Origin: Gammaproteobacteria bacterium
Lineage (GTDB): Bacteria; Pseudomonadota; Gammaproteobacteria; JAJDYQ01
Length of the DNA stretch: 64,000 nt
Assembly (NCBI GenBank): GCA_965214035.1
Contig: OZ243932.1
Span: 937,215 to 1,001,214 of the forward strand
Direction: 5' to 3'
Shown here in pieces: positions 1 to 26,146 of this stretch. Position numbers and translations under genes: made by a program. Within the stretch, counting starts at the first letter, position 1, and every line of letters starts with the position of its first letter. A model generated the notes under the pieces. The model saw nothing but the letters and a program-made list of their open reading frames with translations, had not been told where the DNA came from and searched no databases.

Positions 1-2466
1 ACAGCCAGTTATACCGTGGTACTCGATAAACAACCGACCAGTGGCGAGACAGTGACCATCACCATGGCATCCGCAATGACGACTGTCGCCACGGTAACAC
101 CGACAACTCTGACCTTCTCGACAGCCAACTGGAGCATCCGGCAAAGAATAACGGTGACAGGAGTGCAGGATAATATCGACAATGGAGAACGCAGGATAAC
201 GGTCACACACAACATATCATCCTCCCTTGGTGGCTCCGCTGCCTACAACATCCTGCCCGCACAGACAGTGACCGTAACGGTAACCGACGACGACGAAGCA
301 GGCCTGATATTCGGACAGCTATCCGGCCCCAACAGAATATCCGTCATAGAAGATAGCGACAGCAGCGCCTACACAGTAAATCTGGCGACCATACCGACAG
401 CGAATGTGACAGTGACCATCACCGGCAATGCCGGCACCGACCTGGCACTGAGCGACAACCAACTGATATTCATGGTAACCAACTGGGACCAGCCACAGGA
501 AATACTGGTGACGGCAAATAGCGACCCCGACAGCAACAACGACAGAGTGACACTGACGCACACAGCCGAAGGTGGCGGCTATGACACAGTGGCAGAGGCA
601 ATAGCGGTCAATATCGCCGATGATGAAAGCATGACCGCCGGCGTAACCACCAGCCCGTCAGCCATCAGAGTCAATGAAAACGGCGGAATAGCCAGCTACA
701 CCGTAGTGCTGGATGCCCCACCGATGGCCAATGTGGTCATCACAGTGGCCTCCTCCGATGAAGACGTGATGACAGTAAGCCCGACCAGTCTGATCTTTAC
801 CCCGCTGAACTGGGGCATAGAACAGGCGGTCACAGTGATCGGCATTGATGATGGTACCGACACACCGGTCAGCCGCACGGCAACCAGCCGTCATGCCATT
901 GCCAACAACGGCGGCGATGGTGCAGGCTACCCGGACGATGGCAGCCTGATGATTGACCCTGTGGCAGTGACAGTGACGAGTGCTGCACAACTGACCACCA
1001 ACAACACTCTGACGGCACAGGAGATGGAAATGCAGACAGCCCAACAGACCTGGTTACCGCGCTTTGGCCTGACAGCGATGCAGCATGTACTATCGGGCCT
1101 GAACTACCGATTCTCAGTGGTTGATCCGCCGCCGGGCCTGTCCGGCAACCTGAACGGCCTGCCGAACATTAGCCATGCACCGATGGCAAAAGCAAACCTG
1201 CGTGGCCTGGGTGCAGATGGTTTTGGTCATGGTCATACCAACAAAGATGGCTTTGGTGCCGGTTCAGTTGATCGCCTGTTCAACCTGTCACGGTCATGGT
1301 CGTTATCGCTGCAAAACATGCTGCGTGGCAGCCACTTCATGTACAGCGACAAAGACAGCGTGTCAATCTGGGGCAGGGTACTGTACTCACAGTACGAAGA
1401 CAAAGCGGATGGTGTTCTGGTAACAGGCGATGTAACGACCGGCATCCTGGGTGTGGACAGCGACAACGGGCGCACACTGACCGGCATGGCACTATCGTAC
1501 AGCGATGGTAAGAGCGACTGGAAAGGCACCCTGGGCCAAGGCAAACTAACGAGCACCCTGACATCGCTGATACCGTATATTCAACACACCGTAGCGGACC
1601 GCCTGCAAGTCTGGGCAGCGGCAGGCTACGGTCGTGGCGATCTGAAGCAAACCTCCACCACATCGGCAGACACAAGGCAAAGCCTTGAGCAGATATCGGC
1701 ATCGGCAGGTTTACGCGGCACACTGCTGGAACACCCCGGCCTGACACTGGCACTGATTTCGGATGCGACCCTGGTATATAACAAACTGCATGACTCCATC
1801 CATGCGTCGGGTATGGAAACCAACATACGGCGATTACGCATGGGTCTGGAATGGTCCTGGCAATTACCGCAGGAAGACGGAGGCCGGCTGATTCCGCGGC
1901 TGGAACTGGGTGTTCTGCATGATGATGGAGATACTCAGGGTGGTCTGGGTACGGAACTGGGTGGTGGTGTGAGCTGGGAATCACCCTCCAGAGGTCTGAC
2001 CCTGGAACTGCTGGCCCGCCGCCTGCTGCACCATCAAGCATCGGCGCGTCGCGAATGGGGCCTGTCAGGGGCACTGCGCCTTGACACGAGACCGGACTCA
2101 GCGCATGGCCTGTCACTCAGCCTGCATCAGGAATATGGCAACGCACCGGCATCCGGCGGGCTGGACAGACTGCTATCGGGAACCCTGTCCGACTCATTGA
2201 CCGACAACCCGTCAGAACCGGGGGCCATAGCAAGGCGTTGGAAACTCAATGGTGAATGGGGGCTTGCCCTCGATAATGGAGCCACAGGCATACCCTATGC
2301 GGGCCTGTCCTCATCCGGTTCACAACGCGAACTGAGCCTCGGTTTACGCCTGCTATCGATATCCGGTGGACTGCGTAAAGAGCTGGATATGAGAGCAGTT
2401 CAGCAACAGGAAAGCAACGGCAAAGCCAACCACAAAATCGGTGCCGAAATGAAGTTGAGCTGGTAG
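1..2466 (+). CDS. Giant repeat-containing surface protein, copy 0; only the 3' portion is in the window. Calx-beta-like and Ig-like repeats plus a C-terminal autotransporter-like beta-barrel domain.
   Basis: The frame is open from nt 1, with the repeat motif SYTVVLD at the window start. The repeats follow the form ..NW.QPQ..VTA..D.D..V.LTHTA.GG.Y. The C-terminal ~480 aa (MEMQTAQQTWLPRFGLT...KLSW) is homologous to the C-termini of the other two copies and ends in an aromatic residue, as autotransporter barrels do. Confidence 0.8.
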   Translation, partial: TASYTVVLDKQPTSGETVTITMASAMTTVATVTPTTLTFSTANWSIRQRITVTGVQDNIDNGERRITVTHNISSSLGGSAAYNILPAQTVTVTVTDDDEAGLIFGQLSGPNRISVIEDSDSSAYTVNLATIPTANVTVTITGNAGTDLALSDNQLIFMVTNWDQPQEILVTANSDPDSNNDRVTLTHTAEGGGYDTVAEAIAVNIADDESMTAGVTTSPSAIRVNENGGIASYTVVLDAPPMANVVITVASSDEDVMTVSPTSLIFTPLNWGIEQAVTVIGIDDGTDTPVSRTATSRHAIANNGGDGAGYPDDGSLMIDPVAVTVTSAAQLTTNNTLTAQEMEMQTAQQTWLPRFGLTAMQHVLSGLNYRFSVVDPPPGLSGNLNGLPNISHAPMAKANLRGLGADGFGHGHTNKDGFGAGSVDRLFNLSRSWSLSLQNMLRGSHFMYSDKDSVSIWGRVLYSQYEDKADGVLVTGDVTTGILGVDSDNGRTLTGMALSYSDGKSDWKGTLGQGKLTSTLTSLIPYIQHTVADRLQVWAAAGYGRGDLKQTSTTSADTRQSLEQISASAGLRGTLLEHPGLTLALISDATLVYNKLHDSIHASGMETNIRRLRMGLEWSWQLPQEDGGRLIPRLELGVLHDDGDTQGGLGTELGGGVSWESPSRGLTLELLARRLLHHQASARREWGLSGALRLDTRPDSAHGLSLSLHQEYGNAPASGGLDRLLSGTLSDSLTDNPSEPGAIARRWKLNGEWGLALDNGATGIPYAGLSSSGSQRELSLGLRLLSISGGLRKELDMRAVQQQESNGKANHKIGAEMKLSW

Positions 2467-3346: not shown

Positions 3347-3484
3347 GCGATCTGAACGATGGTATCGCGTCCCCGGATACTATGCCGTCCTGCAAACTCC
3401 CCTGCATATCTGTCCGGGTGTTTCTCTGACAGGTGGTGGTAAATACCATGATAGCAGGAAATCCGGATTGCCCCGCAACCTTCA

Positions 3485-3922
3485 TCAACTCATATCGTGA
3501 GACTCTGGAGAATAGCCACGTTCCCGATAAAACCTGTATCGCTGTCTGGCCATGCGGGCGACCACCTCATCGCCATCGACAACCTCGCTGACCCGTTCAA
3601 AGCGCTCGAAAAAAAGAGGGACATCACTCGCCAGATTGATCAGGACATCATGCACATCAGCGTCATATTCAGGGCGATCACTAATGACAACAGGGCAATC
3701 CGTTATCGTATCCCCGGCATAAACCTCGTGAGGGATAAAACTTCCCTGCCGCCATGTCCACAGCATATCGTCAACCACTGCGGCCTGACCGTCATCATCT
3801 GTGTGCAACAAAATCCTGTGGCCTTTACGATAAACCTTTTCGACCAGACGACAGACAAAACCCAAACGGCTATCCGGGAAACCGTCTTTCAGAATATAGA
3901 AATCAATGCGTGACATGGGCAC
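3485..3922 (-). CDS. holC: DNA polymerase III chi subunit.
   Basis: The product is 145 aa with an N-terminus like chi (SRIDFYIL...). It lies immediately downstream of pepA, as in E. coli. Confidence 0.75.
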   Translation of the reverse strand: MPMSRIDFYILKDGFPDSRLGFVCRLVEKVYRKGHRILLHTDDDGQAAVVDDMLWTWRQGSFIPHEVYAGDTITDCPVVISDRPEYDADVHDVLINLASDVPLFFERFERVSEVVDGDEVVARMARQRYRFYRERGYSPESHDMS

Positions 3923-3959
3923 TCAACACATGGCAGCACAATATATTGATTACACCAGC

Positions 3960-5444
3960 TCAGGCACAGCGGTTGATGAGAAATTGAATCAACAGAGGCA
4001 CTGGCCGACCGCTGGCACCTTTATCTTTTCCACCACTTTTCCAGGCCGTACCGGCAATATCGATATGTGCCCAGCTAACCCCCTCAGTATAGCGTGAGAG
4101 AAAGCAGGCCGCCGTAATAGAACCCGCGCCGCGGCCGCCTATATTCGCCATATCCGCGAAATGACTGTCAATCTGCTGCTGAAACCTGTCATCCATGGGT
4201 AACTGCCACACCCTGTCCAGGGCATCATCACCGGCGTCAATAACCGCATTGACCAGCTTGTCATCATTGCCCATCACAGCGGAAATATGGTGACCAAGGG
4301 CCACGATCACGGCACCGGTAAGCGTAGCGACATCGATGATCACATCGGGCTTGTATTTTCGCGCATAAGTAAGGGCATCACACAAAATCAACCGGCCTTC
4401 CGCATCAGTATTCAATATCTCGATTGTTTTGCCGGACATCGAAGTGACGACATCACCTGGGCGGGTAGCCTTGCCACCGGGCATATTCTCCGTTGCCGGA
4501 ATGATCCCGACCACATTGATCGGCAATTTCAGGGAAGCCGCCGCCTGTATAGTGCCCAATACCGAACCGGCACCGCACATATCATACTTCATCTCATCCA
4601 TGGCAGCGCCCGGCTTCAATGAAATGCCGCCGGTATCAAAAGTGACACCCTTGCCGACCAGAGCCACAGGTGGCATGGACGGCTTGCCGCCCTGATACTC
4701 CAGCACAATCAACCGGGCCGGTTCAGCGCTGCCGGCGGCCACCGACAACAACGAACCCATGCCCAGCTTCTCCATCCGCGCCTCATTCAACACCCGCACA
4801 TTCAGACTTTCAAACCTGCGACCCAGGGCGCGCGCCTGACCGGCCAGATAAGAAGGCGTAGCGACATTGGCCGGCAGATCACCCAGGCGTCTGGTCAATG
4901 TCATGCCCTCGCCAACCGCCTTACCACGAGACAACACCCTGCGCCCCGCTGCCAAATTCTTTCCGACATAAAACTTTATGGAAATCAATGGATTGGAGGA
5001 TTTTTTGAAAGTACTTTTTAACTCACCTCTGCGATAGGCAGCATTCGACATGGAGCAGGCAGCCTGCTGCAACAGCCAGCCTGAACGACGTCCCTTGACC
5101 CTGATTTCACTCAAAAATATCGCTGCATTTTTACTGCCACCGTGATTGAGCCGACCGAACGCCGTCTCGATCATTTTCACCCAGCAATCGGCATCGCGTT
5201 TATCGTCACTGCCGCATCCGAGCACCAGCACACGGGGACTTTTAATCCCCTCCAGACCATACAGATAAAGCGCCTCCCCGGCGTTACCCTTGATATCGCC
5301 CTGATTGACGGCCTTGCGAATAGCGCCCTTACAGGCCTTATCCAACTGTCTGGCGCTTGCCGTCAGACCGTCGGGGGTAAAGCCGACGACGATACAATCA
5401 GTCGTGGTTTTATGGGGAAGGGTATTGATAGCCTGAAACTTCAT
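3960..5444 (-). CDS. pepA: Leucyl aminopeptidase (M17 family).
   Basis: The product is 494 aa and carries the NTDAEGRL signature. The gene is divergent from lptF. Confidence 0.9.
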   Translation of the reverse strand: MKFQAINTLPHKTTTDCIVVGFTPDGLTASARQLDKACKGAIRKAVNQGDIKGNAGEALYLYGLEGIKSPRVLVLGCGSDDKRDADCWVKMIETAFGRLNHGGSKNAAIFLSEIRVKGRRSGWLLQQAACSMSNAAYRRGELKSTFKKSSNPLISIKFYVGKNLAAGRRVLSRGKAVGEGMTLTRRLGDLPANVATPSYLAGQARALGRRFESLNVRVLNEARMEKLGMGSLLSVAAGSAEPARLIVLEYQGGKPSMPPVALVGKGVTFDTGGISLKPGAAMDEMKYDMCGAGSVLGTIQAAASLKLPINVVGIIPATENMPGGKATRPGDVVTSMSGKTIEILNTDAEGRLILCDALTYARKYKPDVIIDVATLTGAVIVALGHHISAVMGNDDKLVNAVIDAGDDALDRVWQLPMDDRFQQQIDSHFADMANIGGRGAGSITAACFLSRYTEGVSWAHIDIAGTAWKSGGKDKGASGRPVPLLIQFLINRCA

Positions 5445-5537
5445 ATTGTTCTCCGCAGCAGTCCTGCATACCGTGTGTTATGACACCGACAAACCATTTT
5501 GCGTATCATAGCGCACTTTACCAACCTTATGTACCGA

Positions 5538-6647
5538 ATGAACCTGTTGCGACTGACAATACTGGATCGCTATCTGCTGAAAGAAATTTTACAGACACTG
5601 GCCGCCATACTGCTGGTACTGATACTGATCATTCTGAGCAACAAAGCAGCCCGTTTCCTGAAGAATGCAGCATCCGGTGAATGGCCGGTAGAGATCATCA
5701 TGCCGATGCTGGGCCTGACGGCTGTCAGCAGTCTGGCGTTGATCATGCCTGTGGCGGTTTTTCTGGCCGTCCTGTCAGTAACCGGGCGGCTGTACAAAGA
5801 CAATGAAATGACCGTGCTCAACAGTTGCGGCGTGAGCACTTACCGGCTATATCGTCCGCTGGCAATACTCGCCATTATTTTAGGGGCAATAATCGGCCCC
5901 ATGTCATTCTACGTCGTACCGATTGCCAAGCAGGCCGCCCAGATACTGCAAACACAAGCCGAGCAGAACTCAGCAATAACCGGAATAGCACCGGGACGCT
6001 TCCACCAGAGCTCAGGTGGTCGGCGCGTCATCTACATTGAACACATCGATGCCGGTCAGGCCGAAAACATCTTTATCCACGAACGGGACAGAGGCCGATT
6101 CAGCCTGATAACAGCACAAACGGCCAGCCAGCAAGGCGAAGCCGGCACCCTGATTGACCTGCAGGACGGCTATCGCTATCAGGGCGGGCAGGAAACAGCC
6201 GGACACAGCGCCATACAATTCAAGCGCCACTGGATACAGGCCGGACAAAACAGCTCCACCCCCCCCGTGCCGGATCACGAAGCGCTTCAAACCCGGCAAC
6301 TGCTCGGTTCAGACAACCCGTACCACCGGGCCGAACTGCACATGCGGACAATAACCACCCTCAGCCCGATGCTGTTCGCCTTTCTGGGTTTGCCACTGGG
6401 GCGGCTGCAACCACGGGAAGGCCGCTATGGAAAAATCATGCTTGGCGTACTCATCTACATCATCTACTTCAAACTGCTTCGAGTCGGGCAGGAGCTCATG
6501 GAACAGGAAACACTGTCGCCATGGCCGGGGCTCTGGTGGGCACCTCTCGGACTGACCCTGTACCTGCTATGGACCCTGCGCTCCGAATCCGAAGTCAGAT
6601 CGACCAGCTACCGTACCAGCAAAGCCCGCACGACAAACAAAAAATGA
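5538..6647 (+). CDS. lptF: LPS export ABC permease LptF.
   Basis: It is a multi-TM permease with the LDRYLLKEIL N-terminus. Its stop overlaps the lptG start (ATGA). The ATG at 5538 is chosen over the TTG at 5499. Confidence 0.8.
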   Translation: MNLLRLTILDRYLLKEILQTLAAILLVLILIILSNKAARFLKNAASGEWPVEIIMPMLGLTAVSSLALIMPVAVFLAVLSVTGRLYKDNEMTVLNSCGVSTYRLYRPLAILAIILGAIIGPMSFYVVPIAKQAAQILQTQAEQNSAITGIAPGRFHQSSGGRRVIYIEHIDAGQAENIFIHERDRGRFSLITAQTASQQGEAGTLIDLQDGYRYQGGQETAGHSAIQFKRHWIQAGQNSSTPPVPDHEALQTRQLLGSDNPYHRAELHMRTITTLSPMLFAFLGLPLGRLQPREGRYGKIMLGVLIYIIYFKLLRVGQELMEQETLSPWPGLWWAPLGLTLYLLWTLRSESEVRSTSYRTSKARTTNKK

Positions 6648-7708
6648 GCATCCTGGACAGACACATCGGCCGCCACATCATAACCGGCTCCATCATGGCC
6701 CTGCTCATGCTGGTTGGCATTGATCTGGTATTCACCTTTGTTGGCGAGGCATCCGACATAGGCGAGGGCGACTACAGCCTGGGCAAATCCCTGCTGTATG
6801 TCATACTGACCGCACCGAGGCGGGCCTACGACTTCATGCCGATGGCCGCCATCACAGGCAGCCTGGTCATGCTTGGCGGACTGGCCGGGCAGAACGAATT
6901 TACCGCCATGCGCAGTGCCGGCGTATCGACCCGACAGATTGCCGGTGCAGTACTGAAGGGTGGGGCAGTGCTGATTGGGATAGTCATCATACTGGGAGAA
7001 GGCATTGCGCCCTATACAGAACCCTGGGCACAGCAAATGCGTACCTTCGCACGCACCCAGAGCACAGCCCTGAAAAGCCAGCATGGTATCTGGATACGCG
7101 ACGCAAACAGCTTTATCAACATAGGTCAGGTGCATCCGGACGGAAAGCTCTACAACCTCGACATCTACCGGCTGGACGACAACTACCGACTGCAACAACA
7201 CACCCGTGCAAAGCGTGCCGAATACAAAGATGGCACCTGGACCCTGTACAACCTGACCCGCACCCGCATGCAACCGCAGCGACTCCAGACCATCACCGAC
7301 CAACAGGCACCATGGGATGTCCTGCTGGAACCCGAACTGATCAAAGTGCTGGCGGTCAAGCCGGAACAACTGCCGATATGGCGGCTGCACACCTACATGG
7401 CCTACCTGCGCACCAACGGCCTCGACACACGGGCCTACGAATTTGCCCTGTGGGGCAAAATCACCGCCCCCTTCGTCATACCGGTCATGCTGATCATAGC
7501 CATACCATTCATATTCAGCCCGTTACGCACCACCGGCTCCGGTCAACGCATTCTGATTGGCATCATACTGGGCATCAGCTACTACCTGCTATCGCACCTT
7601 ATGGTCAGGGCAGGGCAGCTATACGCCCTCAACCCCATACTCAGCAACACACTGCCCATTGCCATCTTCCTGACAGCCGGCTGGCTGGGCTGGCGAACAA
7701 TACGCTAA
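6644..7708 (+). CDS. lptG: LPS export ABC permease LptG.
   Basis: MSILDRHIGRHI... matches the LptG N-terminus. The ATG at 6644 overlaps the lptF stop. Confidence 0.85.
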   Translation: MSILDRHIGRHIITGSIMALLMLVGIDLVFTFVGEASDIGEGDYSLGKSLLYVILTAPRRAYDFMPMAAITGSLVMLGGLAGQNEFTAMRSAGVSTRQIAGAVLKGGAVLIGIVIILGEGIAPYTEPWAQQMRTFARTQSTALKSQHGIWIRDANSFINIGQVHPDGKLYNLDIYRLDDNYRLQQHTRAKRAEYKDGTWTLYNLTRTRMQPQRLQTITDQQAPWDVLLEPELIKVLAVKPEQLPIWRLHTYMAYLRTNGLDTRAYEFALWGKITAPFVIPVMLIIAIPFIFSPLRTTGSGQRILIGIILGISYYLLSHLMVRAGQLYALNPILSNTLPIAIFLTAGWLGWRTIR

Positions 7709-10482
7709 CCCGTATTCCGCATACCGGCGGCGATGGCATTAATAGTACGCAATATCGGTTCAAGCCAGCGCTCACGTCCGGCCTCCGTACTCTCGTTTTT
7801 ATACCGTCGCAGCAACTCGACCTGAATAAAATTCAGCGGGTCCAGATACAGATTGCGGCGCGTCAGCGACAACAGAATATCCGGCGTTTCCGCCATCAGA
7901 CCATCAGTCCCGGCAACAGCGACAACCATGCGCACCGTGCGCAGATACTCAGTCCGGATAGCCAGAAAAACAGCCTCTGCGCGGGCCGGATCACTATCAA
8001 GGCTGGCATAAGCCTGAGCGATATCCATTTCAGCCTTGAACAGCGCCATCTGCGTATTACTCAAAAACGAATGAAAAAACGGCCACTCCTGATACATGCG
8101 GCGACACAACGCCAGCCGCTCCGGGTCATCACCGATCCACTGCTCCAGAGCGGAACCGACGCCAAACCAGGCCGGCAATGTATGCCGCGACTGCGCCCAG
8201 CCAAAGACCCACGGAATAGCGCGCAATGAACCTCTGGAGCGATCCTGTTTTTCACGATGCGAAGGACGGGAGCCGATATTCATCAGGCCGATTTCACTGA
8301 CTGGCGTTGCCTCATAAAAATAATCAACCAGCTCCTGCGAATCCATCAACTCACGATAAACACGCTCACCGACCTGCGCCATCTCCCGGACGGTCGCTCG
8401 GAACACCGCCGGCACCGCCACAACCGGCTGCACCAGGCCGAGGCTTGCCTTAATCAAACCAGTCATACCGACACCCAGCTCAAAGACAGCGGTTTCCGGA
8501 TTATTATACTTATAGAACAACACCTCCCCCTGCTCGGTGAAGCGGGTTTCCCCCTGCACAGACCCTGGCGGATAAGCCAGCAGCGTATCATGCGTAGGTC
8601 CGCCGCCGCGTGCCATCGTGCCACCCCGGCCATGAAACAGGCGAACCCGCACACCATACCGGCCGGCGATTTCAACAATCCGCTCCTGCGCCTCGTACAA
8701 AGACCAGGCCGAGGCAAAAATCCCGCCATCCTTACAGGAATCCGAATAACCCAGCATAACCTCCTGCAAGTTACCGGCCGCCTGCAACAACCGGGTATAG
8801 ACCCGATTCGAAAACAACTGCTCCAGAACCGGCTCGACATGCGCCAGATCATCGATAGTTTCAAACAGCGGTGCAACCAGCATACGACAAAACGGCGCAT
8901 CCGGCCGGCCACCGACCAGCCCACAGACAGAAGCCAGCAACAACACCTCCATCACATGGCTGGCATCACGTGTCATCGAAATCACATAGGCACCAAACGC
9001 CGCCGGGCTGACCTCCTGCTGCAACCGCTCCATAACCGCAAACACCTCCAGAGTCTGTGCGGTATCGGCAGACAAGGCCGAAACATCCACGCCGGCACAC
9101 GCACCGGACTCAAGCCAGCCGGCCAGCAGCGGCAACCGCTGCGGTTCATCCAGCGCCGCATAATCCACCTGCAACTGCTGTCTGACAATCTCGGCAACCG
9201 CCGCCGAATGCCTCGCCGACTCCTGCCGGACATCCAGCTTGACCAGATGAAAGCCAAAAGTTTCCGCCAGCCGGATCAAATCCGACAACTCCGCATCGGC
9301 CGTTGCCTGATCACCATGTGCAACCAGCGAATCACGGATCAAACAAAGATCATCGATAAAATCCTGCGCCTGCACATAACCCCTCGCCGCCGGCAGCGGT
9401 CCGCCATGTACAGGCTGCATGACAGACTGCAAAGTCTGCTCCAGTTGCACCCGCATCAGGGCCAGCTTGCGGCGATAAGGCTCCGACCGGAAGCGATTCG
9501 GATTGCTGGCAAAAGCCTCCGCACTGAGCCGGCCCTGAGTCTCCAGACTATCGAGCAACGCCTGCGACGGCTGACACATACCGTCAGAAAACGTCAGAAT
9601 ATTACCCAGTTGCACCACCCGGCTCCGATACTCACTCAAAATGACCTCGGCGTGCAGACGCACCGCCTTCTCCGTCGTCTCCGGCAATACAAAAGGATTA
9701 CCGTCACGGTCGCCGCCGATCCAGGAACCGAAGCTCAAAAAGGAAGGAATGCGGATACCGTCACCATAAACCCGCGCCGCGGCATCACCCATACGGCGAT
9801 AAAGCAGCGGCACAGCAATAAACAACGATTCACGGAAATAATACAGACCGGTACGGATCTCATCCTCAACAGAAGGCTTGCGCCCTCGCACCTCATCGGT
9901 TTTCCACAAAGTCTGGATTTGCGCCTCCAGTTGGCGATGCAGACAGTGGCGCTGCTCACGGCTGCTGCCGGTGCCACCCAGTTGCTCGGCCGTGACAAAA
10001 ATTCGCCGCATCAACACCATAATGGAACGACGTCGGGCCTCGGTCGGATGAGCGGTAAAGACAGGCCGAAAAGCCAGTTTCCCCAGCAGAGCCTGCACCT
10101 GCGACACACCCAGGCCACGCCGGTGCAATTCACGAAAAGTGGCATCAAACGAACCCGGCCACGACGTTCCGCTGCGGCCGGCCATAGCCCGTTGGCGGTG
10201 CATAAAAGACTCCTCGGCGATATGCAGCAGGCCGAAAAAGACCGTATAGGCCCGGATTACACGCGACAACAAACCCGGCTCAAGCCGGCGGATACGGCGC
10301 ATCAAACGCCGACGCAAGGCCGGATCATCCTTTTTCCGCAGTTTGCTGAAACCACGGCGCAAAGACTGCACCGTCTTCAAAACCTCAGACTCCTCCTGAG
10401 AACTCAATACATGACCGAGCACATCCCCGAACAGCCGCACCCGACTGCGCAATACCTTGTCATACCTCAACTCAATAGCCAT
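7705..10482 (-). CDS. ppc: Phosphoenolpyruvate carboxylase.
   Basis: The product is 925 aa and contains the VFTAHPTE and FHGRGGT motifs plus the C-terminal AGMRNTG. Confidence 0.9.
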   Translation of the reverse strand: MAIELRYDKVLRSRVRLFGDVLGHVLSSQEESEVLKTVQSLRRGFSKLRKKDDPALRRRLMRRIRRLEPGLLSRVIRAYTVFFGLLHIAEESFMHRQRAMAGRSGTSWPGSFDATFRELHRRGLGVSQVQALLGKLAFRPVFTAHPTEARRRSIMVLMRRIFVTAEQLGGTGSSREQRHCLHRQLEAQIQTLWKTDEVRGRKPSVEDEIRTGLYYFRESLFIAVPLLYRRMGDAAARVYGDGIRIPSFLSFGSWIGGDRDGNPFVLPETTEKAVRLHAEVILSEYRSRVVQLGNILTFSDGMCQPSQALLDSLETQGRLSAEAFASNPNRFRSEPYRRKLALMRVQLEQTLQSVMQPVHGGPLPAARGYVQAQDFIDDLCLIRDSLVAHGDQATADAELSDLIRLAETFGFHLVKLDVRQESARHSAAVAEIVRQQLQVDYAALDEPQRLPLLAGWLESGACAGVDVSALSADTAQTLEVFAVMERLQQEVSPAAFGAYVISMTRDASHVMEVLLLASVCGLVGGRPDAPFCRMLVAPLFETIDDLAHVEPVLEQLFSNRVYTRLLQAAGNLQEVMLGYSDSCKDGGIFASAWSLYEAQERIVEIAGRYGVRVRLFHGRGGTMARGGGPTHDTLLAYPPGSVQGETRFTEQGEVLFYKYNNPETAVFELGVGMTGLIKASLGLVQPVVAVPAVFRATVREMAQVGERVYRELMDSQELVDYFYEATPVSEIGLMNIGSRPSHREKQDRSRGSLRAIPWVFGWAQSRHTLPAWFGVGSALEQWIGDDPERLALCRRMYQEWPFFHSFLSNTQMALFKAEMDIAQAYASLDSDPARAEAVFLAIRTEYLRTVRMVVAVAGTDGLMAETPDILLSLTRRNLYLDPLNFIQVELLRRYKNESTEAGRERWLEPILRTINAIAAGMRNTG

Positions 10483-10645
10483 AAAAGCAACCCGTGCGAC
10501 ACCGATCCACCGATAAAACAGCGCATTATAACCGGTAAAATCCCTTCATAAAGGCAGCCGTGACCACAAACCCCGACCCAATACACCATAAATTTCGACA
10601 AAAAATACAATTTATGCTAAAAAAGCTGTTTTTTTGCTGACCGGC

Positions 10646-10654
10646 TGCTATAAT
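10646..10654 (+). promoter_or_regulatory. Candidate extended -10 promoter element (TGcTATAAT) reading toward giant gene copy 1.
   Basis: The sequence TGCTATAAT lies ~340 nt upstream of the ATG at 10992. It is conserved at 26632..26640 upstream of copy 2. Confidence 0.3.
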
Positions 10655-10812
10655 TCAGGAAACAAAGGCCAACTGAACCGCTTGCCAGTGATGGCAGGCT
10701 GATTCAAGATAAGCCCGACCCTGTCGGCGGGCACGGTATCCGGCCCTTGCAACGGATACCACAAACAGTAACCGATAATCGGAAATTGATAAAAACACAC
10801 GACGGAGGATAA

Positions 10813-10923
10813 CATGAAATCTGGACAAAAATGGATTCTGAACAGCAACAAGGGTCATGCCGTGATATGCAAAATCATCACAGTCATAAACAATGCCTTG
10901 CGACCGGCAGGCATCGATATTGA
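10813..10923 (+). CDS. Upstream leader ORF (uORF, 36 aa) preceded by a strong SD (GGAGG-N7-ATG).
   Basis: A GGAGGATAAC-ATG context. Relative to the copy-2 uORF it has one extra C at 10859-10861 and terminates at TGA 10921..10923, before the poly-C tract. Confidence 0.3.
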   Translation, partial: HEIWTKMDSEQQQGSCRDMQNHHSHKQCLATGRHRY

Positions 10924-10940
10924 CCTGTGTAAAAATACAG

Positions 10941-10968
10941 CCCCCCCCCCCCCCCCCCCCCCCCCCCC
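10941..10968 (+). repeat. Homopolymeric tract of 28 C followed by 7 A, 24 nt upstream of the giant-gene start.
   Basis: Counted directly in the sequence. The homologous tract upstream of copy 2 has 19 C. Confidence 0.95.
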
Positions 10969-10990
10969 AAAAAAATGAGAGGGTATATCT

Positions 10991-11016
10991 GATGCCGGCC
11001 GTCGATGCCGGCCGCT
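10991..11016 (+). repeat. 13-bp direct repeat, two units (GATGCCGGCCGTC and GATGCCGGCCGCT), containing the start codon.
   Basis: Direct comparison with copy 2 (26966..26978), which has a single unit. Confidence 0.9.
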
Positions 11017-14000
11017 CTGCGGTGCATTCCTGTCGCGAGGCAGGTGCCTCTGAGCCTCCTGGCCGGCTGACGCGCCGGTCTTTTTCCGACAGTTTCCATT
11101 CTGTGACAGCCCGCACCGCCGGCTGGCTGCGCCGTGCGGCGATGGTGTCATTGCTCGGACTGCCACTGCTGTTCGGGTTGGCGACGCAAGCGGTGGCGCA
11201 GACCGTGCCGACGCTCAAGGTCGAGGGTGATTTCTCTGTCACCGAAGGCGATTCCGGCACCATCACGCTCACCCTGAGCCAGGCGGCGAGCGGCACGATC
11301 ACATTTACCACCGGCAGCTACTTAACTGACTGCGACACACATAATTGTCCCACTGATATCTCTGGAGCGTCCGCATCCGATTTCTCTTCTGGCACGGGCT
11401 CCACGCGGACAATAACTTTCAACATCGGCGATACGACCAAGTCCTTGACCTTCATGACGACCGAAGACAGCGCAATCGAGTCAACAGAGATTTTCTCGAT
11501 TGGGATTGTTGATCTCGCTTCCAGCGAAGCCACCATCGATCCGGGTACACCGGCCGACAGAATTTTCTTTGGAACTTTTATGTCTTGGTGGGTCCGCATC
11601 CTCGATGACGATGCCCCGCCCATGATTTCCATTGCCGGCGGCAGTCCGGCCACCGAGGGAGCCGGCACGCTCACCTACACACTGACGGCGAACAAACCAC
11701 CGGCCACAGATCTGACCATTAATTTAACCGTCTCTGAAGACGAAACCGATGGCCAGAACTTTGTCGCTGCCGGTGACGAAAACAGTCAGGCCGTCACCTT
11801 CCCGGCCGGCACCACCGCGGCCAGCTACACGATTCCGATCACCGACGATGAAGTCGATGAAGCCAGAGGCGAGGTCACGGTGACAATCAATGACGGTACC
11901 GGCTATACCGCCGGCACCGACACGGTTACCATCACGGTGCGCGACGACGACAGAACCATCGTCACCCTGGCCGAAAATCCGGCCGGCGACCTCGATGAAG
12001 GCGCCCGCAAACAGATTACCCTGACCCTGAACCGTCCGCTGGTTTCGGGTGAGACCCAAGTCCTCTCGCTCGAACTTGGCGGCACCGCCACGGTGAATAC
12101 GGACTATACCCTGGCCGGCATACCGGCGGACGGCGTGCGTTACGAGGATCTGGCCTCCGGGAACCCTGGAATCGTATTTACCGGCCAGACTTCCGGCTCT
12201 GCCACGACCGCCACACTGACCGTGACGGCCATCGCAGATGGTATCTCTGACCCCGGCGAGGTCATCACCATGGAGTTTGCAACATCGGAATTAGTAAGCC
12301 CGGACGGCGATGCGGGAATACAGGACGCTCGGGGCGGCGGCCCGGTCAGCGCCACCCGAACGATTGCCTTCAGGATCACCGAACAACCGGCGCTGGTACT
12401 GAATCCATCCATGCTGACCATTGACGAGGGCGATACGGCGACCTACATCGTGTCTCTGGCCACCCAGCCCAATGCGTCAGTGGCCATTACTGTAAGCGGT
12501 CAGGCCGATACCGATCTGACCCTGAGCGGTGATACCCTGAGCGGTGATACCCTCAGCTTCACCATGATGAACTGGAACCAGCCGCAGACCATCACGGTCA
12601 CCGCCGGGTCGGACGACGACGCCCAATCGGATGACCCGATCGCCCTGTTGCACACCGCCACCGGCGGTAACTATGCCGGAGTCACCGGTGAAGTCACGGT
12701 CACCATCACCGAAGACGATACGGCCGGTATCACCGTACAGCCGACCACCCTGGCCGTGGATGAAGGCGGCACCAACAACTACACCGTGGTACTGACCTCG
12801 GCCCCGGCCGGCGAGGTCATCATCGAGGTCCGACCGGGCACGGTCGCCACCGTCGATAATGACATGCTGACCTTTGCCCAGAGTAACTGGAATCAGGCAC
12901 AGACGGTCACCGTGACCGGCATGGATGACGCGGTGTACAACGCCGGCGATGCACGCTCTGGCACTATCACCCACACCATCGGCACCGCTGACGGTGGTGC
13001 CTATACCACCGATCTGGAACTGGACTCTGTCACAGTCACCGTCACGGACGACGATAATCCGACATTGACTGTCAGCTTGCCAAATGGTGAAACAACCATC
13101 GAGGAAGGAAGTGGTTTTACCAGAGTTCGAATAACCGCAGACCCTGAACCGGGGGCGGGGGATAGTTCTCGCCTTATAAATCAAGATCCGTCAAATGATC
13201 TGTCAAATGTTCTATTTTTCAGCCCTGGTTATGGATGGTCTTCTTTCCGTGCACCGGATACCAGTTTCGACCCTGATATCGATTTTGAATTTAATATTGC
13301 TGACAACGATAACGATCAGCCCAATGGTACGCTGACTATCGACGTATCCGTCCTGAGAGGCTTTGCAGCCGGTTCTCCGTCCATGGTCACGCTGACCATC
13401 ATTGACAACGACCCGACCGAGGTCAGCCTGATTCGCACCGGCAGTACGGGCGCTATTGACGAGGGCGGCACCGTCGCCTTCACCGTACAACTCAGCCGTG
13501 CCCTGGTTGCCGGCGAGATTATTGACGTACCGCTGGTCATCGACGGCACCGGCGTCACCCCCGCCGACTGGAGCCTGAGTGCGACCGGTACCGGTGTGGT
13601 TCTGTCCAATGAGAACACAATGACTCCGCTGCTGCGCTTTGAGAATGCCGGCGCACAGACGGCTGAACTGACCTTGACTGCCATCAGCGACAATACGGTG
13701 GAAGGCGGTGGTTCCGAAACTTATGTTATCGACCTGGGTCTGGGCCTAGTCATTTCCCCTGATGAGCTCAATGGCATTGACCAAGGCAGTCTGAACACCA
13801 ATGTGGGCGGTGGTGCCGACCCGCACAGCGGCAGTAACACCTTCAGTGTGCAGGTCGATGATCCGACATTGACTGTCAGCTTGCCAAATGGTGAAACAAC
13901 CATCGAGGAAGGGGGGTCGTCCATTACGGCTCGATTCACTGCGAACCCGCCGGTGGCGCAATCTTTGGGCATCCCCAGTAATTTTAGAACTCTTACCACT

Positions 14001-17000
14001 GGTTATACCTCATTTACCAGCCTTGAAGATGACTCTTTGGTAAGACCAGTGGATATTGGATACTTTATTGATGAAAACAATATGGATCAGCCCAACGGCA
14101 CTCTGACCATCCATGTATCCGATTCACGGTTTGCAGCCGGTTCTCCGTCCATGGTCACGCTGACCATCATTGACAACGACCCGACCGAGGTCAGCCTGAT
14201 TTACACCGGCAGTACGGGCGCTATTGATGAAGGCCAGGCCGTTACCTTCACCGTACAACTCAGCCGTGCCCTGATCGCCGGCGAGATTATTGACGTACCG
14301 CTGGCCATCGACGGCACCGGCGTCACTCCCGCCGACTGGGGCCTGACAGAGCAGGCGGGCATAGCCAATACCGGCGTCAGCCTGCACGACACCGATACGG
14401 CCGTGCCCTTCATCCGCTTCAGCGGCGCCGGTGCCGAGACCGCCCTGCTGCAACTGGCCGCGGCGCTGGACGACACCGATGAAGGTGGTTCCGAGACCTT
14501 TATGATTGCCTTGGGCCAAGACGGCTCAACAACCAACGGCTTTGATCTTCCCGGTCGTGCCACCAATGTCGGCGGCGGTGCCGACCCGGACGGCGACAAC
14601 AATCGCTTTGAGTTAGTCGTCAATGACGAGGGAAGCACCGTGTTGTCCATTGGCATTGACTCGGTAACCGATGCGGAAGGCGATGCCGGTGAGACGACCT
14701 TCAAAACGGTTACGGTCAGCCTGTCGCGGCCCTACAGCCGGGACCTGGTGGTGAATGTGCGTCGTTCCGGCTCAGCCACCCGTGGCACCGACTATGAGCT
14801 GGTCGGTACCGGTGACAACAATGCCCTGATCAACTTTAATCCGGTCAGGAGATTCACCATCACCGCGGGTGCCACCAGCGTCCAGTTCCGTATCCGTGTC
14901 ATCGGCGACACGGTCTTTGATATCGATGAGACGGTGGTACTAACGTTGATCGGTCTGACCACCGGTATTAGCGAGGCCGTCACGGATGTCGTCATTTCTA
15001 ATATCGTCGGTGCGGTCACCCACACGATTGAAAATGACGATCCCGGCGGTAAAGTCACGGTCAGCCGGTCGGCGCTGAGCATGGAAGAAGCCGATGGCGC
15101 GGCCAGCTACACCCTGGTGCTGGACAGTCAGCCGGGCGATGAAATCATCTTGACGGTGGCCGGTGGTGAAGCCGATACAGCCACCGTCAACACAACCGGC
15201 GGCATGGCCGGCATCGAACAGACCCTGACCTTTACCACGATGAACTGGGATCAGGCACAGACCGTGCTGGTGGCTGCGGTCAACGACGATGAAGACAATG
15301 CCGGTGGCAGTCGCAGGCTCACCCTGACCCATACCATTACCACCGGTGACGATGCCGGTTATTCGACCGGTCTGCCGGTGGATGCGGTCGTTGTCACGGT
15401 GGTGGACGATGATAGAACCATCGTCACCCTGGACGAAAATCCGGCCGGCGACCTCGATGAAGGCGCCAGCAAACAGATTACTCTCACACTGAACCGCGGT
15501 CTGGTCAATGGCGAAGAGCTGGTCGTCCCGCTGACCTTCGGCGGTGATGCCACACGGGGCACAGACTACACCCTGATGGAGGTCGCAGCGAATGGCGTGA
15601 GCTATGCCAATCTGACCGGCAGCGACGACCCCGCCGTCACATTCATCGGCCCGTCCTCCGGCACTACCGCCATGACGGCCACCCTGACCCTGAGAGCCAT
15701 TGCCGACAGTACCTCCGACCCCGGCGAGAGCGTCACCATTGTACCGGGTACCTTGACCGACACCTCTCTGGACGGCGGCGGCACGGTCACCGGCAGTCTG
15801 GCTTTTAACATCATTGAACGAGTGGCGCTGATACTGGGTCCCGACCGTTTGATGGTATCGGAAGGTATGCAAACAGCGAGCTACACGATTCGTCTGGCGA
15901 GTGAGCCGACGGCACCGGTGACGGTAGTGGTGACCGGTTATGTCGGCACCGGCCTGACGCTGGATAACGACGAATTGATTTTCACGGCGGCCAACTGGAA
16001 CATTGCCCGGCAGGTAACACTGACCACAGCGGCGATGGACAGCGACTTGGCCGGCAGCACCCTGCAGTTGCGGCACACGGCCTCGGGTGGCAATTACCTC
16101 TCGGTGACCGCCGACCTGAGTGTGACCCTGCTGGATGACACGGCCGGTGTGGTGGTCATGCCCAGTGGTGACAATACCTTGGTCAGCGAGGACGGTGCCC
16201 GCACGGACGATTACACACTGAGGCTGAGCACACAACCGGTCGGTGATGTGGTGGTGCGGGCGACGGCCGGCACCGGCCTGAGTGTGAACGATGCGGCCGC
16301 GGCCGATCTGACCTTTACCGCTACCAACTGGAATCAGGCACAGACGGTGACGATAGCGGGCATTGACGATGACATTGCCAGCGGTGCGCTGCGCACCGTG
16401 TCGGTGACCCATACCATTGTCAACAGTGCAGACAGTGGCTATCCGGAGGACGCCCTGCGCATCGCCAATCTGGACGTCATGCTGATAGACGACGATACCG
16501 CCGGTCTGCTGTTGTCATCATCGGATCTGACGCTGTCGGAAGGCGACACCATCAGCTACACGGTGCGTCTGACCAGCCAGCCGACCGCGGTGGTGTCGGT
16601 GACCATTACCAGCGACAACGAGGATCTGACAGCGGGCAATACCCCCTTGATGTTCAGTACGGACAACTGGTCCATGCCGCAGACGGTGCTCCTGACGGCC
16701 AACGCAGACGATGATTCGGACGACGAGCAGGCGCAACTGACGCACCGCGTGGCGGGGGGTGACTATGGCGCGATCAGCGAGGTCATTTCGGTGCGCATCA
16801 CGGATCGCTCGGCCGGTGTGGATATCACGCAGAGCGGCGGCAATACGATAGTCCGCGAGGATGGCGGCGAGGACAGCTACACACTGGTCCTCAATGCGGC
16901 ACCGCGCGGTGATGTGACCCTCACGGTGACTGCCGCAGCCGGTATAACGGTGGATACGGACAGCCTGACCTTTACAACCGGTAACTGGCAGACACCGCAG

Positions 17001-20000
17001 CCCGTTACGGTGACCGGTGTCAATGACGACCTGGATAATCCCGATGATGGGCGCGAGGTCATGATCCGCCATGCGGTCAGTGGTGCCGGCGACAGTGCCG
17101 GCTATACCCCGGCCCTGTCGATTGCGCCGGTATCGGTGACGGTGCTGGACGACGACACGGCCGGGCTGCGCTTCAGCCGTTCGGTGCTGGCGGTGGTTGA
17201 GGGCGGCAGTACGAGCTACGGTGTGCGTCTGACCAGCCAGCCGACCGCGGTGGTGACCGTGACCATTGCCAGCGACAACGGGGATCTGACAGCGGGCAAT
17301 ACCCCCTTGATGTTCAGTACGGACAACTGGCCCATGCCGCAGACGGTGACGGTAACGGCGGGCACGGACAGCGATATGGACAATAACGATGTCGCCCTCA
17401 GCCACACGGCCACGGGCGGCGGCTATAACTCGGTCAGCGCCACCCTGGGCGCGATGCTGCTGGAAGGCGGTACTGCCAGCGTCAGCATTGTGCAGAGCGA
17501 CGGTCGCACCATCGTCACGGAGGGGGTCAGCACGGATTTCTATGAGGTGGTGTTGAATACGGCACCGGACCGCGATGTGACCGTGAGAGTCAGTGCCGAC
17601 AGTGGTGTGACGGTCAATGGTGCGGCCACACTCGATCTGGTCTTTACCCCGACCAACTGGCATGAGGCGCAGCCGGTCATGGTAGCGGCGGTGGACAACA
17701 ATGCCGATGACGGTGTGCGCACGGCCGATATCAGCCATATCCTGAGTGTTGGGGACAATAATGACTATGACCGGACACTGACCATTGCCGGGGTAACGGT
17801 GACGGTGAACAGAGATCCAGATGATAGCCGTGGGCGGCTGGTGACTTTGAGTGGCGGTGATCAAGAAGGGTCGACGCGGTCTTTCAACTTTGTCTTCGAA
17901 AGTAGCCCAGGGCGAAGTCTGGGTGCTGACGAGGTCATGACGCTGCCGTTGATACCTGGTGGCGACGCGGTGCGCGGTCAGGATTATCAGGTGCGTTGTG
18001 AGCGCAACCCGGCAGGACGCGGATCGCACCCTGCGGTTTCCTGTGTCGAGTCAACAGACGGTCAACTGATGTTCATTCTGGATGGCACACAGATATCTCC
18101 CGGCAGACGAACATTCAGATTCACCCTGCCTTTGGAGGTGGAGTTGCTGGAGGACAATATGGCGGAACCGGTCGAGACCCTGACGCTGCGCCTTGGTGAG
18201 AACGGTCAGGACTTTCGCATCCCAATCATGGATGCGCCATCGACCGTGAGCGTGGAGTTTAACAAGTCAATCTATCGCAACAATGAAAATTTCCACTCCA
18301 TAACTCTGATACTTGAGATCAGTCCGCTACTGGGTCGTGCCATCGACTTGCCGCTGCTGTTTATTGACGGTACCGCACAGGCCGGATCAGACTTTGAACC
18401 GATCAGTTCCACCGTCCTTAATTTTACTTCTGAGGGGCGGGCATTTTTTGCTATCACACTCTTGGATGATCAGATAGCCGAAGGCGACGAGAGATTCACG
18501 GTCGTGATTGATGAAACCCGACTGCCGGACTTTATCACCGTTGGCACCAATGCCGCGGCCACAGTCATCATGACCGATAATGATGAGCGCGGGCTGGTTT
18601 TTGATTCCGATACACTGACTCTGGCGGAGGGTGGCACGGGCAGCTACACGGTGCGTCTGTCCAGCCAGCCGACCGATGAGGTGGCGGTGGTGATCGCCGG
18701 TCAGGCCGGTACCGACCTGATGCTGGACCGGGACATTCTGACCTTTACCACGGCGAACTGGAATCAGGCACAGATGGTGACGGTGATGGCCGAAGATGAC
18801 GACGATGGCGATGCCGATCGCATTGTGCTGGTGCATACGGCCTCCGGCGGTGACTATGGACTGACAGCCCGCGTGCAGGCCGACATCATCGACAGGGAGG
18901 CACCGGAGGTGCGGCTGAACAAGGAGGCCATCACGGTCAGCGAGGGCGGCAGCGGCGACAGCTATACGCTGGTGCTGCACACCGAACCGGCCGGCACCGT
19001 GACGGTGACTCTCGCTCCGGCGGCCGGCATAACGGTGCAGCCGGGTAGCGTGACCTTCACGGTGGATAACTGGAATACGCCGCAGGCGGTCACCGTGACC
19101 GGTGTGAATAGTGATGAGATTGACCGGGGTGATCGCACGGTGACCATTGTTCATACCATCACTGCCACCGATGACGCCGATGACTATCCGGAGGATCTGC
19201 GGATAGACCCGGTGCGTGTGACGATAGAGGAAGACGATGAGGCCGGCGTGATGATTGTCGAGAGCGGTGACCGTACGGCGGTCAGTGAAGACGGTGGCAT
19301 CAGGGATGACTACACGGTGGTGCTGACCTCACAGCCGGCCGCTCGTGTGGTGGTAACCGCCACGGCCGCGGCCGGTGTCAGTGTGGATACCCAGTCTCTG
19401 AGCGGTGTGCAGAACACCCTGACCTTTACCACCCTGAACTGGCAAAGCCCGCAGACGGTGACGGTGACCGGGGTGGATGTAGACACCGTGGATCGCGGGG
19501 ACCTTGATGTGTCGATCACTCATGCCATCACGACCACGGCCGGTGGTTATGTGAAAGAGTTGTCGATTGATTCGGTACCGGTGCAGGTGATTGACAATGA
19601 TGCGGCGAACCGCCTGCTGTTTGAGCTGGTTGATCCGGCAGCCGATGTGCTGGTCACGGAAGGTTCGGAGGTGGCCTACACGATGCAACTGGTGGGTCAG
19701 CCGCTGGCCGATGTCACGGTCGATATCAGCGGCCATGACGGCACGGATGTGACGCCGGCCCCGACCCGCCTGACTTTTACCACGCAGAACTGGAATGCCG
19801 GTCAGACGGTGACCCTGACGGTGGCGGCCGATGACAGCGGCGACGGCGAGCGTGTCACCCTGACGCACCGCGCCTCCGGCGGCGGCTATGATGGCACCGA
19901 GGTGGCACTGGAGGTGGCCATCACCGATAGTGATATATCGGGCGTGAGCATCAGCAAAGATACCCTCGTGGCCATCGAGAATGAGGCCGTTACCGACAGC

Positions 20001-24842: not shown

Positions 24843-24850
24843 GAAGTCCG

Positions 24851-24927
24851 TAGCCGGCTCTTCTCTCTGCCGGCTGTTGCGGGGCCGGATTCCATCCACA
24901 TTGTCACCGGCTTCGCTTTTTTATGGC
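24851..24927 (+). terminator. Stem-loops plus a T6 run downstream of giant gene copy 1 (candidate intrinsic terminator).
   Basis: The hairpin AGCCGGC-N10-GCCGGCT is followed by GCGGGGCCGG...CCGGCTTCGC-TTTTTT. The copy-2 homolog is a perfect 10-bp stem. Confidence 0.4.
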
Positions 24928-25014
24928 TCCAACCGTCCATGCCTGACACGCTCAGGCATAGGCGGCAGGCTGTCCAGATTGCCCGACTGGCTCAGAGATA
25001 TATTGCCTCGTGAA

Positions 25015-25252
25015 TCAGGCTGATATTACGACGCAAAAGGAATTTCTCAGGTTGTGGTTGGCTTCGCATAACTTATCCAGTAGTTCAGGGGTCGATATTT
25101 CACATACTGTCGCCGTCTCTAATGCCATAACGGTGGAATTGGGACATATACTCCCAGCCCATCCAGACCCATAATCTCGCCGGGCAGGTAAAAGCCGGTT
25201 ATCTGCTCCCGGCCCTGCTCGTTAATGATGAATGTTTTATAAGAACCTGAGC
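25015..25252 (-). pseudogene. Decayed FNR/CRP-family regulator remnant (internal frameshift, both ends lost).
   Basis: The translated pieces are FIINEQGREQITGFYLPGEIMGLDGLG and ALETATVCEISTPELLDKLCEANHNLRNSF. They match the E. coli FNR segments [24 protein letters not shown] and [29 protein letters not shown]. Confidence 0.5.
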
Positions 25253-25311
25253 TGACAGCGAAAATCCTTCATGATGCTGCTTTCTGCATTAGGATAGCCA
25301 TATCCGTTTGA

Positions 25312-26100: not shown

Positions 26101-26146
26101 GCAAAGTAGAAATTTTTGTCGATGGTGCCTGTCGCGGTAATCCCGG
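26097..26146 (+). pseudogene. rnhA: 5' stub of rnhA (the first ~17 codons, [17 protein letters not shown]), cut off at the duplication junction.
   Basis: The stub is identical to the start of the intact rnhA at 36555. It then runs into antisense ppc sequence. Confidence 0.75.

Follow-up and report, generated by a model that had tools for sequence, protein, structure and literature searches.

A 64,000-nucleotide (nt) stretch of Gammaproteobacteria bacterium DNA (assembly GCA_965214035.1, contig OZ243932.1, positions 937,215 to 1,001,214; hereafter the window) carries an uninterrupted run of 28 cytosines just ahead of a gene encoding a giant, autotransporter-like surface protein. The interpretation that we favor, and hold to be somewhat better than even, is that this tract is a hypermutable contingency repeat located in the translated leader open reading frame (ORF) of a giant autotransporter adhesin gene, and that it acts on translation and not on the promoter. 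Judged from its placement, a change in the length of the tract would shift the reading frame that runs toward the giant surface-protein ORF, 24 nt on, and the sequence comparisons described below indicate that the tract is a real, fast-evolving repeat of the contingency type. The anatomy of the leader, the recurrence of the same module ahead of other giant genes, and the length polymorphism of the tract were all observed directly.

The tract occupies positions 10941-10968 of the forward strand and is followed by seven adenines (10969-10975); these positions were read from the window sequence, and the tract was also picked up by Tandem Repeats Finder. An earlier note, made from the sequence alone, had described C28 and A7 ahead of the first of two giant genes (copy 1), and both are present there. 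After the adenines come TGAGAGGGTATATCTG and then the ATG at 10992-10994, which begins 24 nt past the last C, a spacing that the note had given correctly, with a Shine-Dalgarno (SD)-like element, GAGAGGG, at 10977-10983. The second tract that it had described, 19 C and 3 A upstream of copy 2, was located at 26929-26947, followed by AAA (26929-26950 as a whole, forward strand). These two tracts are the only runs of C or G longer than 8 in the window, in which ∼1.5e-11 runs of at least 28 and ∼2e-6 runs of at least 19 would be expected by chance. The length of a homopolymer in an assembly may be wrong by one base or more, and all lengths given here are assembly lengths. Since the 200 nt preceding the tract are 98% identical between copies 1 and 2, the difference in length between them represents a genuine, tract-specific change.

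The candidate promoter of the leader transcript is an extended -10-like element, which the earlier note had correctly placed at 10646 (Table 1) and which is identical in copy 2 (26634-26642) and in L181, a related locus described below. The consensus promoter scan did not report this element, there being no -35 hexamer at that position. Downstream of it lies the leader ORF, preceded by a strong SD sequence, and comparably strong SD sequences precede the leader ORFs of the related locus L013 (AGGAGG) and of ten modules in the genome OY759969 (GAGGA). The leader ORF opens with 42 codons, after which the tract is read as nine prolines and two lysines before a TGA stop; its 54-amino-acid (aa) product is called as a protein (P0132) in the public annotation of the source genome, and its start is conserved in L181 and in relatives from the KELL22-1 metagenome. 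Past the tract, one frame ends at TGA 10976, another at the TGA that overlaps the giant gene's ATG, an arrangement also used by L013, and the third is the frame of the giant ORF itself. A second upstream ATG, at 10893 and without an SD sequence, is in frame with the giant ORF at the present length of the tract. Thus the giant ORF would be in frame with ATG 10814 at C27 or C30, with ATG 10893 at C28 or C31, and with neither at C26 or C29.

Table 1. Features of the leaders and giant genes, with positions in the window.
Feature	Positions	Strand	Remarks
Extended -10-like element TGcTATAAT	10646-10654	+	Candidate promoter of leader transcript; read from sequence
SD sequence of leader ORF, GGAGGA	10804-10809	+	4-5 nt upstream of ATG 10814
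Leader ORF (upstream ORF, uORF), 54 codons, MKSGQKW...NTA-P9-KK-stop	10814-10978	+	From translation
5' arm of predicted 15-bp RNA helix	10905-10920	+	Inside leader ORF; pairs with 10985-11001
TGA, current stop of leader ORF at C28	10976-10978	+	Overlaps second SD element GAGAGGG (10977-10983)
3' arm of predicted helix	10985-11001	+	Holds ATG 10992; from ViennaRNA folds
Second TGA, other frame	10990-10992	+	Overlaps ATG 10992 (TGATG); stop at C29 or C26
13-nt direct repeat (GATGCCGGCCGTC / GATGCCGGCCGCT)	10991-11016	+	Two units in copy 1, one in copy 2
Giant ORF copy 1, 4616 aa from ATG 10992	10992-24842	+	Pre-signal region, signal peptide, autotransporter-like C-terminus
Intrinsic-terminator-like hairpin (GGCCGGC...GCCGGTC) + T5	11061-11085	+	Within pre-signal coding region
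Copy 2 leader ORF, 76 codons	26802-27032	+	Through C19, in frame into ATG 26967, then dead end
Giant ORF copy 2 as listed, 2794 aa	26984-35368	+	Chimeric 5' end

The same arrangement recurs elsewhere. We defined the module as an SD-ATG, a non-conserved peptide, poly-C, A3-7, TG(A/G)G and a second SD-ATG, located ahead of giant ORFs; the source sequence is a contig of 2,513,604 bp from an uncultured bacterium, and the relatives are Gammaproteobacteria metagenome-assembled genomes (MAGs). A related MAG of 2.57 Mb, OY759969.1, was reached by searching with the N-terminal sequence of the giant protein; a separate locus there has the same layout and a tract of C28, and a genome scan found ten modules in this MAG, with tracts of 23, 27, 27, 27, 28, 39, and 55 C and three interrupted tracts of 39, 41, and 51 nt. 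Each of these ten modules contains, in this order, a conserved promoter-like TTGCAA-N17-TAGAAT, a GNRA-capped hairpin, an SD sequence with a 17-codon leader ORF, the poly-C tract and, 3' of it, AAATGGGGTATTTATG, then a conserved signal peptide (∼52 aa), and an ORF of more than 2000 aa comes next wherever the fetched locus permits measuring. A module of the window's own type was found in L013, on another MAG contig, with C13 and a 96-codon leader ORF whose TGA overlaps the main ATG. A search with the leader peptide uncovered a third paralog in the source genome, P0133, with a tract of ∼C20, as well as a near-identical allele of it in another assembly (L181/P0135) with C29. The adenine run that follows is A7 in copy 1, and A3 in copy 2, L181, L013, and the OY759969 modules. 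Poly-C-led giant paralogs therefore number at least three in the source genome and at least ten in the relative, and in fifteen modules from at least three genomes an SD-ATG leader ORF is open up to the tract. That the tract is part of a recurrent module is as one would expect of a contingency locus. The leader peptide of the OY759969 type, used as a query, gave no matches, and a metagenome scan with CCCCCCCCCCCCAAATGRG returned 120 loci, all of them noise or contig-end artefacts, with the module in none.

Comparison of closely related modules showed that the tract evolves much faster than its flanks. The loci L038 and L040 carry C27 and C23, respectively, between flanks that are 100% and 99% identical; P0133 and P0135 are one residue apart outside the proline run, and their tracts are C20 and C29; and copies 1 and 2 differ by C28 A7 versus C19 A3 and by a 13-nt repeat present twice in the former and once in the latter. 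The hypermutability that the earlier note had attributed to the tract is thus borne out on an evolutionary scale, among paralogs as well as alleles.

In other relatives, the position of the tract is taken by different repeats. At one locus sampled in two metagenomes, L177 and L179, an octamer (CGCCGGAT) is present in 7 and 4 units, respectively, and the ∼500 nt of flank are 100% identical. In L178, (CGCCGGT)11 lies in a continuous ORF that leads from an upstream SD-ATG into the giant gene, with no other in-frame start. The KELL22-1 metagenome contigs (L001-L004) are 93-94% identical to positions 3446-10829 of the window, and their leader ORF runs through a variable number of 23-nt tandem repeats resembling repetitive extragenic palindromes (REP), then A7-GGAG-ATGATG, and ends at a TGA that either overlaps the ATGATG or lies 8 nt upstream of it. 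These contigs diverge from the window upstream of ppc, exactly past the start of the leader ORF (ATGAAATCTGRACAAA), and several of them end within the 23-nt repeat region. Four repeat types at one homologous leader position are the pattern that would be expected of selection for local instability, and stops in the alternative frames are found at or beside the second ATG in three unrelated module types. The 13-nt direct repeat of copy 1 is a second frame-changing repeat of the leader; it matches in position the (CGCCGGAT)n array of L177 and the (CGCCGGT)n array of L178.

Additional evidence comes from the region between the tract and the signal peptide. The Sec signal peptide of copy 1, RRAAMVSLLGLPLLFGLATQAVA/QT, which was read directly from the translation and is of the typical N-terminal type, is preceded by a conserved pre-signal region of ∼50 aa, whose motif ASEPP...SDSF...TAR shows amino-acid conservation. 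Substitutions in this region fall at the third codon position in 10/17 and 9/18 cases, an excess indicating that the region is translated, and its translation in turn requires an upstream start codon in L177 and L178.

From this anatomy we infer that the leader ORF is translated, that its translation is coupled to that of the giant ORF, and that expression may be affected as a result. Transcription would start near the extended -10 element at 10646, and ribosomes would load at the strong SD/ATG (10804-10816), translate 42 codons and go on through the tract, read as polyproline; the length of the tract would set the frame in which they reach the giant ORF. In copy 1, a tract of C27 or C30 would fuse the leader ORF in frame with the giant ORF, C29 or C26 would bring ribosomes to a stop at the TGA over ATG 10992 (TGATG), a classic arrangement for termination and re-initiation, and at the current C28 they would stop at TGA 10976, 13 nt ahead of ATG 10992. 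Where a sister module has TGG instead of the first TGA, the third frame would overrun the start codon by 60-71 nt, which would probably block initiation of the giant ORF. Slippage could in this way produce heritable, reversible, and paralog-independent changes in expression, either on/off or graded. Among the mechanisms listed in the earlier note, this anatomy favors the one that acts through the reading frame of the upstream ORF, and the one that acts through promoter or activator spacing did not hold up, as discussed below.

The folding of the leader RNA was evaluated with ViennaRNA, using minimum-free-energy and partition-function folds. The predicted helix, whose arms are given in Table 1, has a z-score of ∼-2.9 and encloses the tract in its loop, and in the prediction all of ATG 10992 is paired with 10912-10914, its probability of being unpaired being ∼0.00 at every tract length tested. 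Since the predicted helix locks this start codon against codons of the leader ORF, its use should depend on translation of the leader, and the helix fits a model of translational coupling, with the start site becoming available only once ribosomes on the leader ORF have opened it. In the OY759969 modules, AAUGCCCC is predicted to pair with the SD region GGGGUAUU. A "volume control," with tract length acting through RNA structure, was considered and rejected, because the predicted accessibility of the SD and AUG was identical for tracts of n = 8 to 55.

Several observations weigh against the contingency-repeat interpretation. Copy 1 has no evident OFF frame, all three frames giving either an in-frame fusion or a stop at or just before ATG 10992, so that the clean on/off switch suggested by the earlier note is not seen in this copy, and the second SD/ATG past the tract could free expression from the tract altogether. 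Tracts of 19-55 nt far exceed the length that classical switches need, and slippage of RNA polymerase on runs of this kind could make the frame indistinct in the RNA. The polymorphism was seen between paralogs and between assemblies only, and several of the allele differences are multiples of 3 (9, 9, and 24 nt) and keep the frame. The predicted helix is without covariation support, and L181 has an uncompensated change in it. Finally, an overrun-type frame occurs in 9/15 modules, which would fit the idea that most paralogs are OFF, but the excess is not significant (p = 0.03 uncorrected, ∼0.09 corrected).

Alternatively, the tract could be part of a leader attenuator dependent on Rho and elongation factor P (EF-P), an explanation that we consider unlikely, although it is compatible with the frame-shifting role proposed above and could add to it. 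Poly-C RNA would act as a very strong rut site, onto which Rho is loaded, and would also stall the leader ribosome at polyproline: a ribosome that kept pace, for which EF-P is needed, would cover the tract and allow the 14-kb gene to be transcribed, and one that stalled or was absent would permit early termination by Rho or at the 11061-11085 hairpin, with tract length tuning the gate. Consistent with such a gate, the tract is always inside the leader ORF, encodes at least 4 to 18 consecutive prolines, is much longer than a mutational switch needs, and is the only strongly C-rich, G-poor stretch of the leader (46-50% C, with a C/G ratio of 2.4-2.9, in 80-nt windows), and a terminator-like hairpin with T5 comes next. 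Rut sites masked by a uORF are an established class that includes tnaC, speFL, and cruR, and in leaders of this type, mgtL/mgtP among them, the rut site is masked, or a terminator kept from forming, by the ribosome on a short leader ORF (PMC12360218). Translation becomes uncoupled from transcription at polyproline stalls, and loss of EF-P leads to Rho-dependent as well as intrinsic termination downstream of polyproline motifs (PMC5021804). None of those attenuator leaders, however, has a hypermutable repeat, and the leaders of the relatives described above carry GC-rich 7-, 8-, or 23-nt repeats instead of poly-C, so the property common to all of them is repeat instability and not C-richness or proline codons. 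An ops/RfaH element was looked for in the leader and was not found, nor did an Rfam search of positions 9500-12000 at E ≤ 1 return any family, and conservation of the hairpin does not extend to L177, L178, or the OY759969 modules. Three terminator-like sites were found versus 1.1 ± 0.9 expected, which supports the site at 11061-11085 only weakly. Copy 2 keeps this hairpin with a C-to-T change in which pairing is retained as G-U.

We also think it improbable that the tract has no regulatory role and is a tolerated mutational by-product, for example of runaway slippage under weak mismatch repair, in a part of the protein that is removed with the signal peptide or dispensable, with expression proceeding from ATG 10992 at any length. 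It is true that copy 1 has its own SD/ATG past the tract, that stops catch the leader ORF in both other frames, that several of the length differences keep the frame, that the sequence of the leader peptide is not conserved across module types, and that the 5' end of copy 2 is decayed and chimeric. But long homopolymers are restricted to the module within the 64 kb, the leader ORF is kept open to the tract in all fifteen modules, four repeat types at the same position in homologous genes argue for selection for instability, and ATG 10992 is predicted to be sequestered. A transcriptional switch of the fim/opc/porA type, based on promoter or activator spacing or on reiterative transcription at the start site, seems very improbable to us. 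The tract does lie between the extended -10 element and the ATG, and past it there is a weak -10-like TATATC (10984-10989), which matches in position a perfect TATAAT beside the repeats of L177 and L178. However, the good -10 element is ∼290 nt upstream of the tract, which is located within an ORF, and homologous tracts of 13-55 C are incompatible with a spacing optimum; TATATC has no -35 element and the consensus scan found no promoter there; a start site past TATATC would leave out ATG 10992; and in L177 and L178 the gap between TTGACA and TATAAT is 23 and 29 nt, respectively, which is an unworkable spacer. To an assembly or sequencing artefact we give next to no weight: many unrelated poly-C pattern matches in MAGs and metagenomes are indeed artefacts of the poly-G/C kind common at contig ends, and exact homopolymer lengths are error-prone, but this tract is internal to a 2.5-Mb contig with unique and conserved flanks, and the same flanks and tract recur in the independent assemblies L181, L013, and OY759969.1.

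The frame-shifting and attenuator roles might also be combined in a hypermutable gate on transcription-translation coupling, in which one tract serves as slippage repeat, as polyproline stall site read with the help of EF-P, and as a near-ideal Rho-loading site. We regard such a gate as decidedly unlikely, and attach as little credence to its corollary that the expression of each paralog would be set jointly by tract length and frame, which are heritable and stochastic, and by the physiological status of EF-P, proline, and Rho. This combination of three roles is one that we find in no described attenuator or phase-variable locus.

The contingency-repeat interpretation has parallels in known systems. 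In the (CAAT)n repeat of Haemophilus influenzae licA (lic1), upstream starts lie in different frames and the repeat number determines which of them, if any, is in frame (PMC2212159). The leader described here resembles licA in having the repeat in the 5' part of the frame, with upstream starts in two of the three frames, but the repeat is a homopolymer of 19-55 nt and not a tetranucleotide, there is an extra SD/ATG downstream of it, stops in the other frames are placed at that ATG, and the controlled gene is a 14-kb autotransporter gene, one of many paralogs. Poly-C tracts are also carried by the Neisseria meningitidis autotransporter genes nalP and ausI (PMC5472700). We hold the present tract, likewise a poly-C of autotransporter genes, to work alike, although it is 13-55 C long, lies upstream of a very long pre-signal region with a second SD/ATG in between, and accompanies at least 3 to 10 or more paralogs in each genome. 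Tracts of the nalP/ausI type comprise ∼8-15 C within a single ORF that has a normal signal peptide. In Bordetella fim and N. meningitidis opc and porA, poly-C or poly-G is located upstream of a surface-protein gene, in or beside the spacer between the -10 and -35 elements, and acts through spacing; here, in contrast, the tract lies within an ORF, ∼290 nt beyond the promoter-like element, and no promoter was detected around it. The heptanucleotide leader repeat of H. influenzae hmw1A acts post-transcriptionally, grading expression through leader RNA structure; the repeat is not translated, makes up one arm of a long hairpin, and undergoes processing by RNase III (PMC12721329). Both repeats are in the transcribed leader of a large adhesin gene, but the tract studied here is within a leader ORF, is predicted to be in a loop, and has no effect of length on the predicted fold. 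What sets the present tract apart from these systems is its length, its position within a leader ORF that precedes a second SD/ATG, with stops at that ATG, the very long pre-signal region, and the number of paralogs.

If the interpretation is correct, giant autotransporter adhesins form families in uncultured Gammaproteobacteria whose genomes are ∼2.5 Mb in size, and each paralog would be individually switchable via an exceptionally long poly-C in a translated leader, and contingency-locus biology would extend well beyond the classical human pathogens. The leader would then be a natural system uniting repeat instability, uORF coupling, polyproline translation and, possibly, Rho. Gene callers split or mis-start such genes and short-read assemblies break at the tract, so these families are easily missed.

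The placement of the tract in the 5' leader of a giant gene, as stated in the earlier note, is borne out, and the gene product is autotransporter-like. Calx-beta and fn3-like repeats are present in the copy 1 protein. Over its C-terminal 800 aa, it shares 45% identity with the end of a third giant ORF in the window (16-2463), and that ORF has a match to PF03797 Autotransporter (E = 3e-10, 40.6 bits versus a cut-off of 26). The C-terminus of copy 1 itself, which ends in ...KLNW, gave a sub-threshold match only, to OMP_b-brl, and a PDB profile search with the C-terminal domain was without match; the AlphaFold model of this domain had a predicted local distance difference test (pLDDT) value of 43, which is too low, and was not used for a fold search. 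Positions 16-2466 hold the 3' end of this third giant autotransporter gene, the 5' leader of which is outside the window, and its homologue in L001 is 3304 aa long.

Copies 1 and 2 belong to a tandem segmental duplication of ∼16 kb, with units at ∼10154-26141 and 26142 to ∼36560. In each unit, the 5' end of ppc, on the minus strand, is followed by a ∼510-nt leader, then by a giant gene and finally by a gene for a methyltransferase. The full ppc gene is at 7705-10482, and its homologue matches PEPcase; exact look-ups of the window ppc and of P0015 found nothing on record. The flanks are 98% identical and the gene bodies 84-95%, and the junction at 26141/26142 truncates an rnhA-like start. Truncated methyltransferase fragments of 119 aa elsewhere in the genome, together with the L181 junction, suggest further copies of the duplication.

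The leader ORF of copy 2 comes to a dead end because of the 13-nt deletion. The 5' end of this copy consists of a leader of the copy 1 type, REP-like insertions at 27115-27480, and then a second signal peptide. After the pre-region of the copy 1 type there is a second pre-region-like stretch (SSRPESSAPASA), followed by two palindromes that resemble dRS3, at 27179 (GTCATTCCCGCGAAGGCGGGAA) and 27317 (GTCATTCCCGTGGAAGCGGGAA), and by an inverted repeat of 38 nt at 27365-27466; the reading frame is open throughout 27115-27480. The resemblance to dRS3 pointed at first to an origin in Neisseria, which was rejected, as the relatives are unclassified MAGs of Gammaproteobacteria.

A number of minor observations were made in the course of the analysis. 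Ahead of the copy 1 leader ORF there are conserved hairpins at 10680-10700 and 10734-10760, the first of which has a GNRA loop (GUGA; GUAA in KELL22-1), and the OY759969 modules have a conserved hairpin, CGGCC-CGCAA-GGCCG, ahead of theirs. The GC skew is -0.06 to -0.13 (C > G on the coding strand) at 10001-14000 and 26001-30000, and is negative over the 5' thirds of both giant genes and positive further in. In OY759969.1, one giant gene (L005 2348-11444) is called as five consecutive ORFs of 1196, 730, 272, 521, and 224 aa, which suggests frameshifts, either by pseudogenisation or by homopolymer errors in the assembly. One cluster member, P0134, is an unrelated eukaryotic BCCIP protein and was discarded as a clustering artefact, and L025 and L030 were rejected as modules, as they have poly-G 5' of a different gene on the opposite strand. 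In these two loci, the G run (G25 at L025 7744-7768, Arenicellales OY730442.1, versus G37 at L030 1510-1546, Gammaproteobacteria OY730298.1) is directly 5' of a gene with a signal peptide and an Fn3-like start, and probably represents another long-tract contingency locus in marine MAGs.

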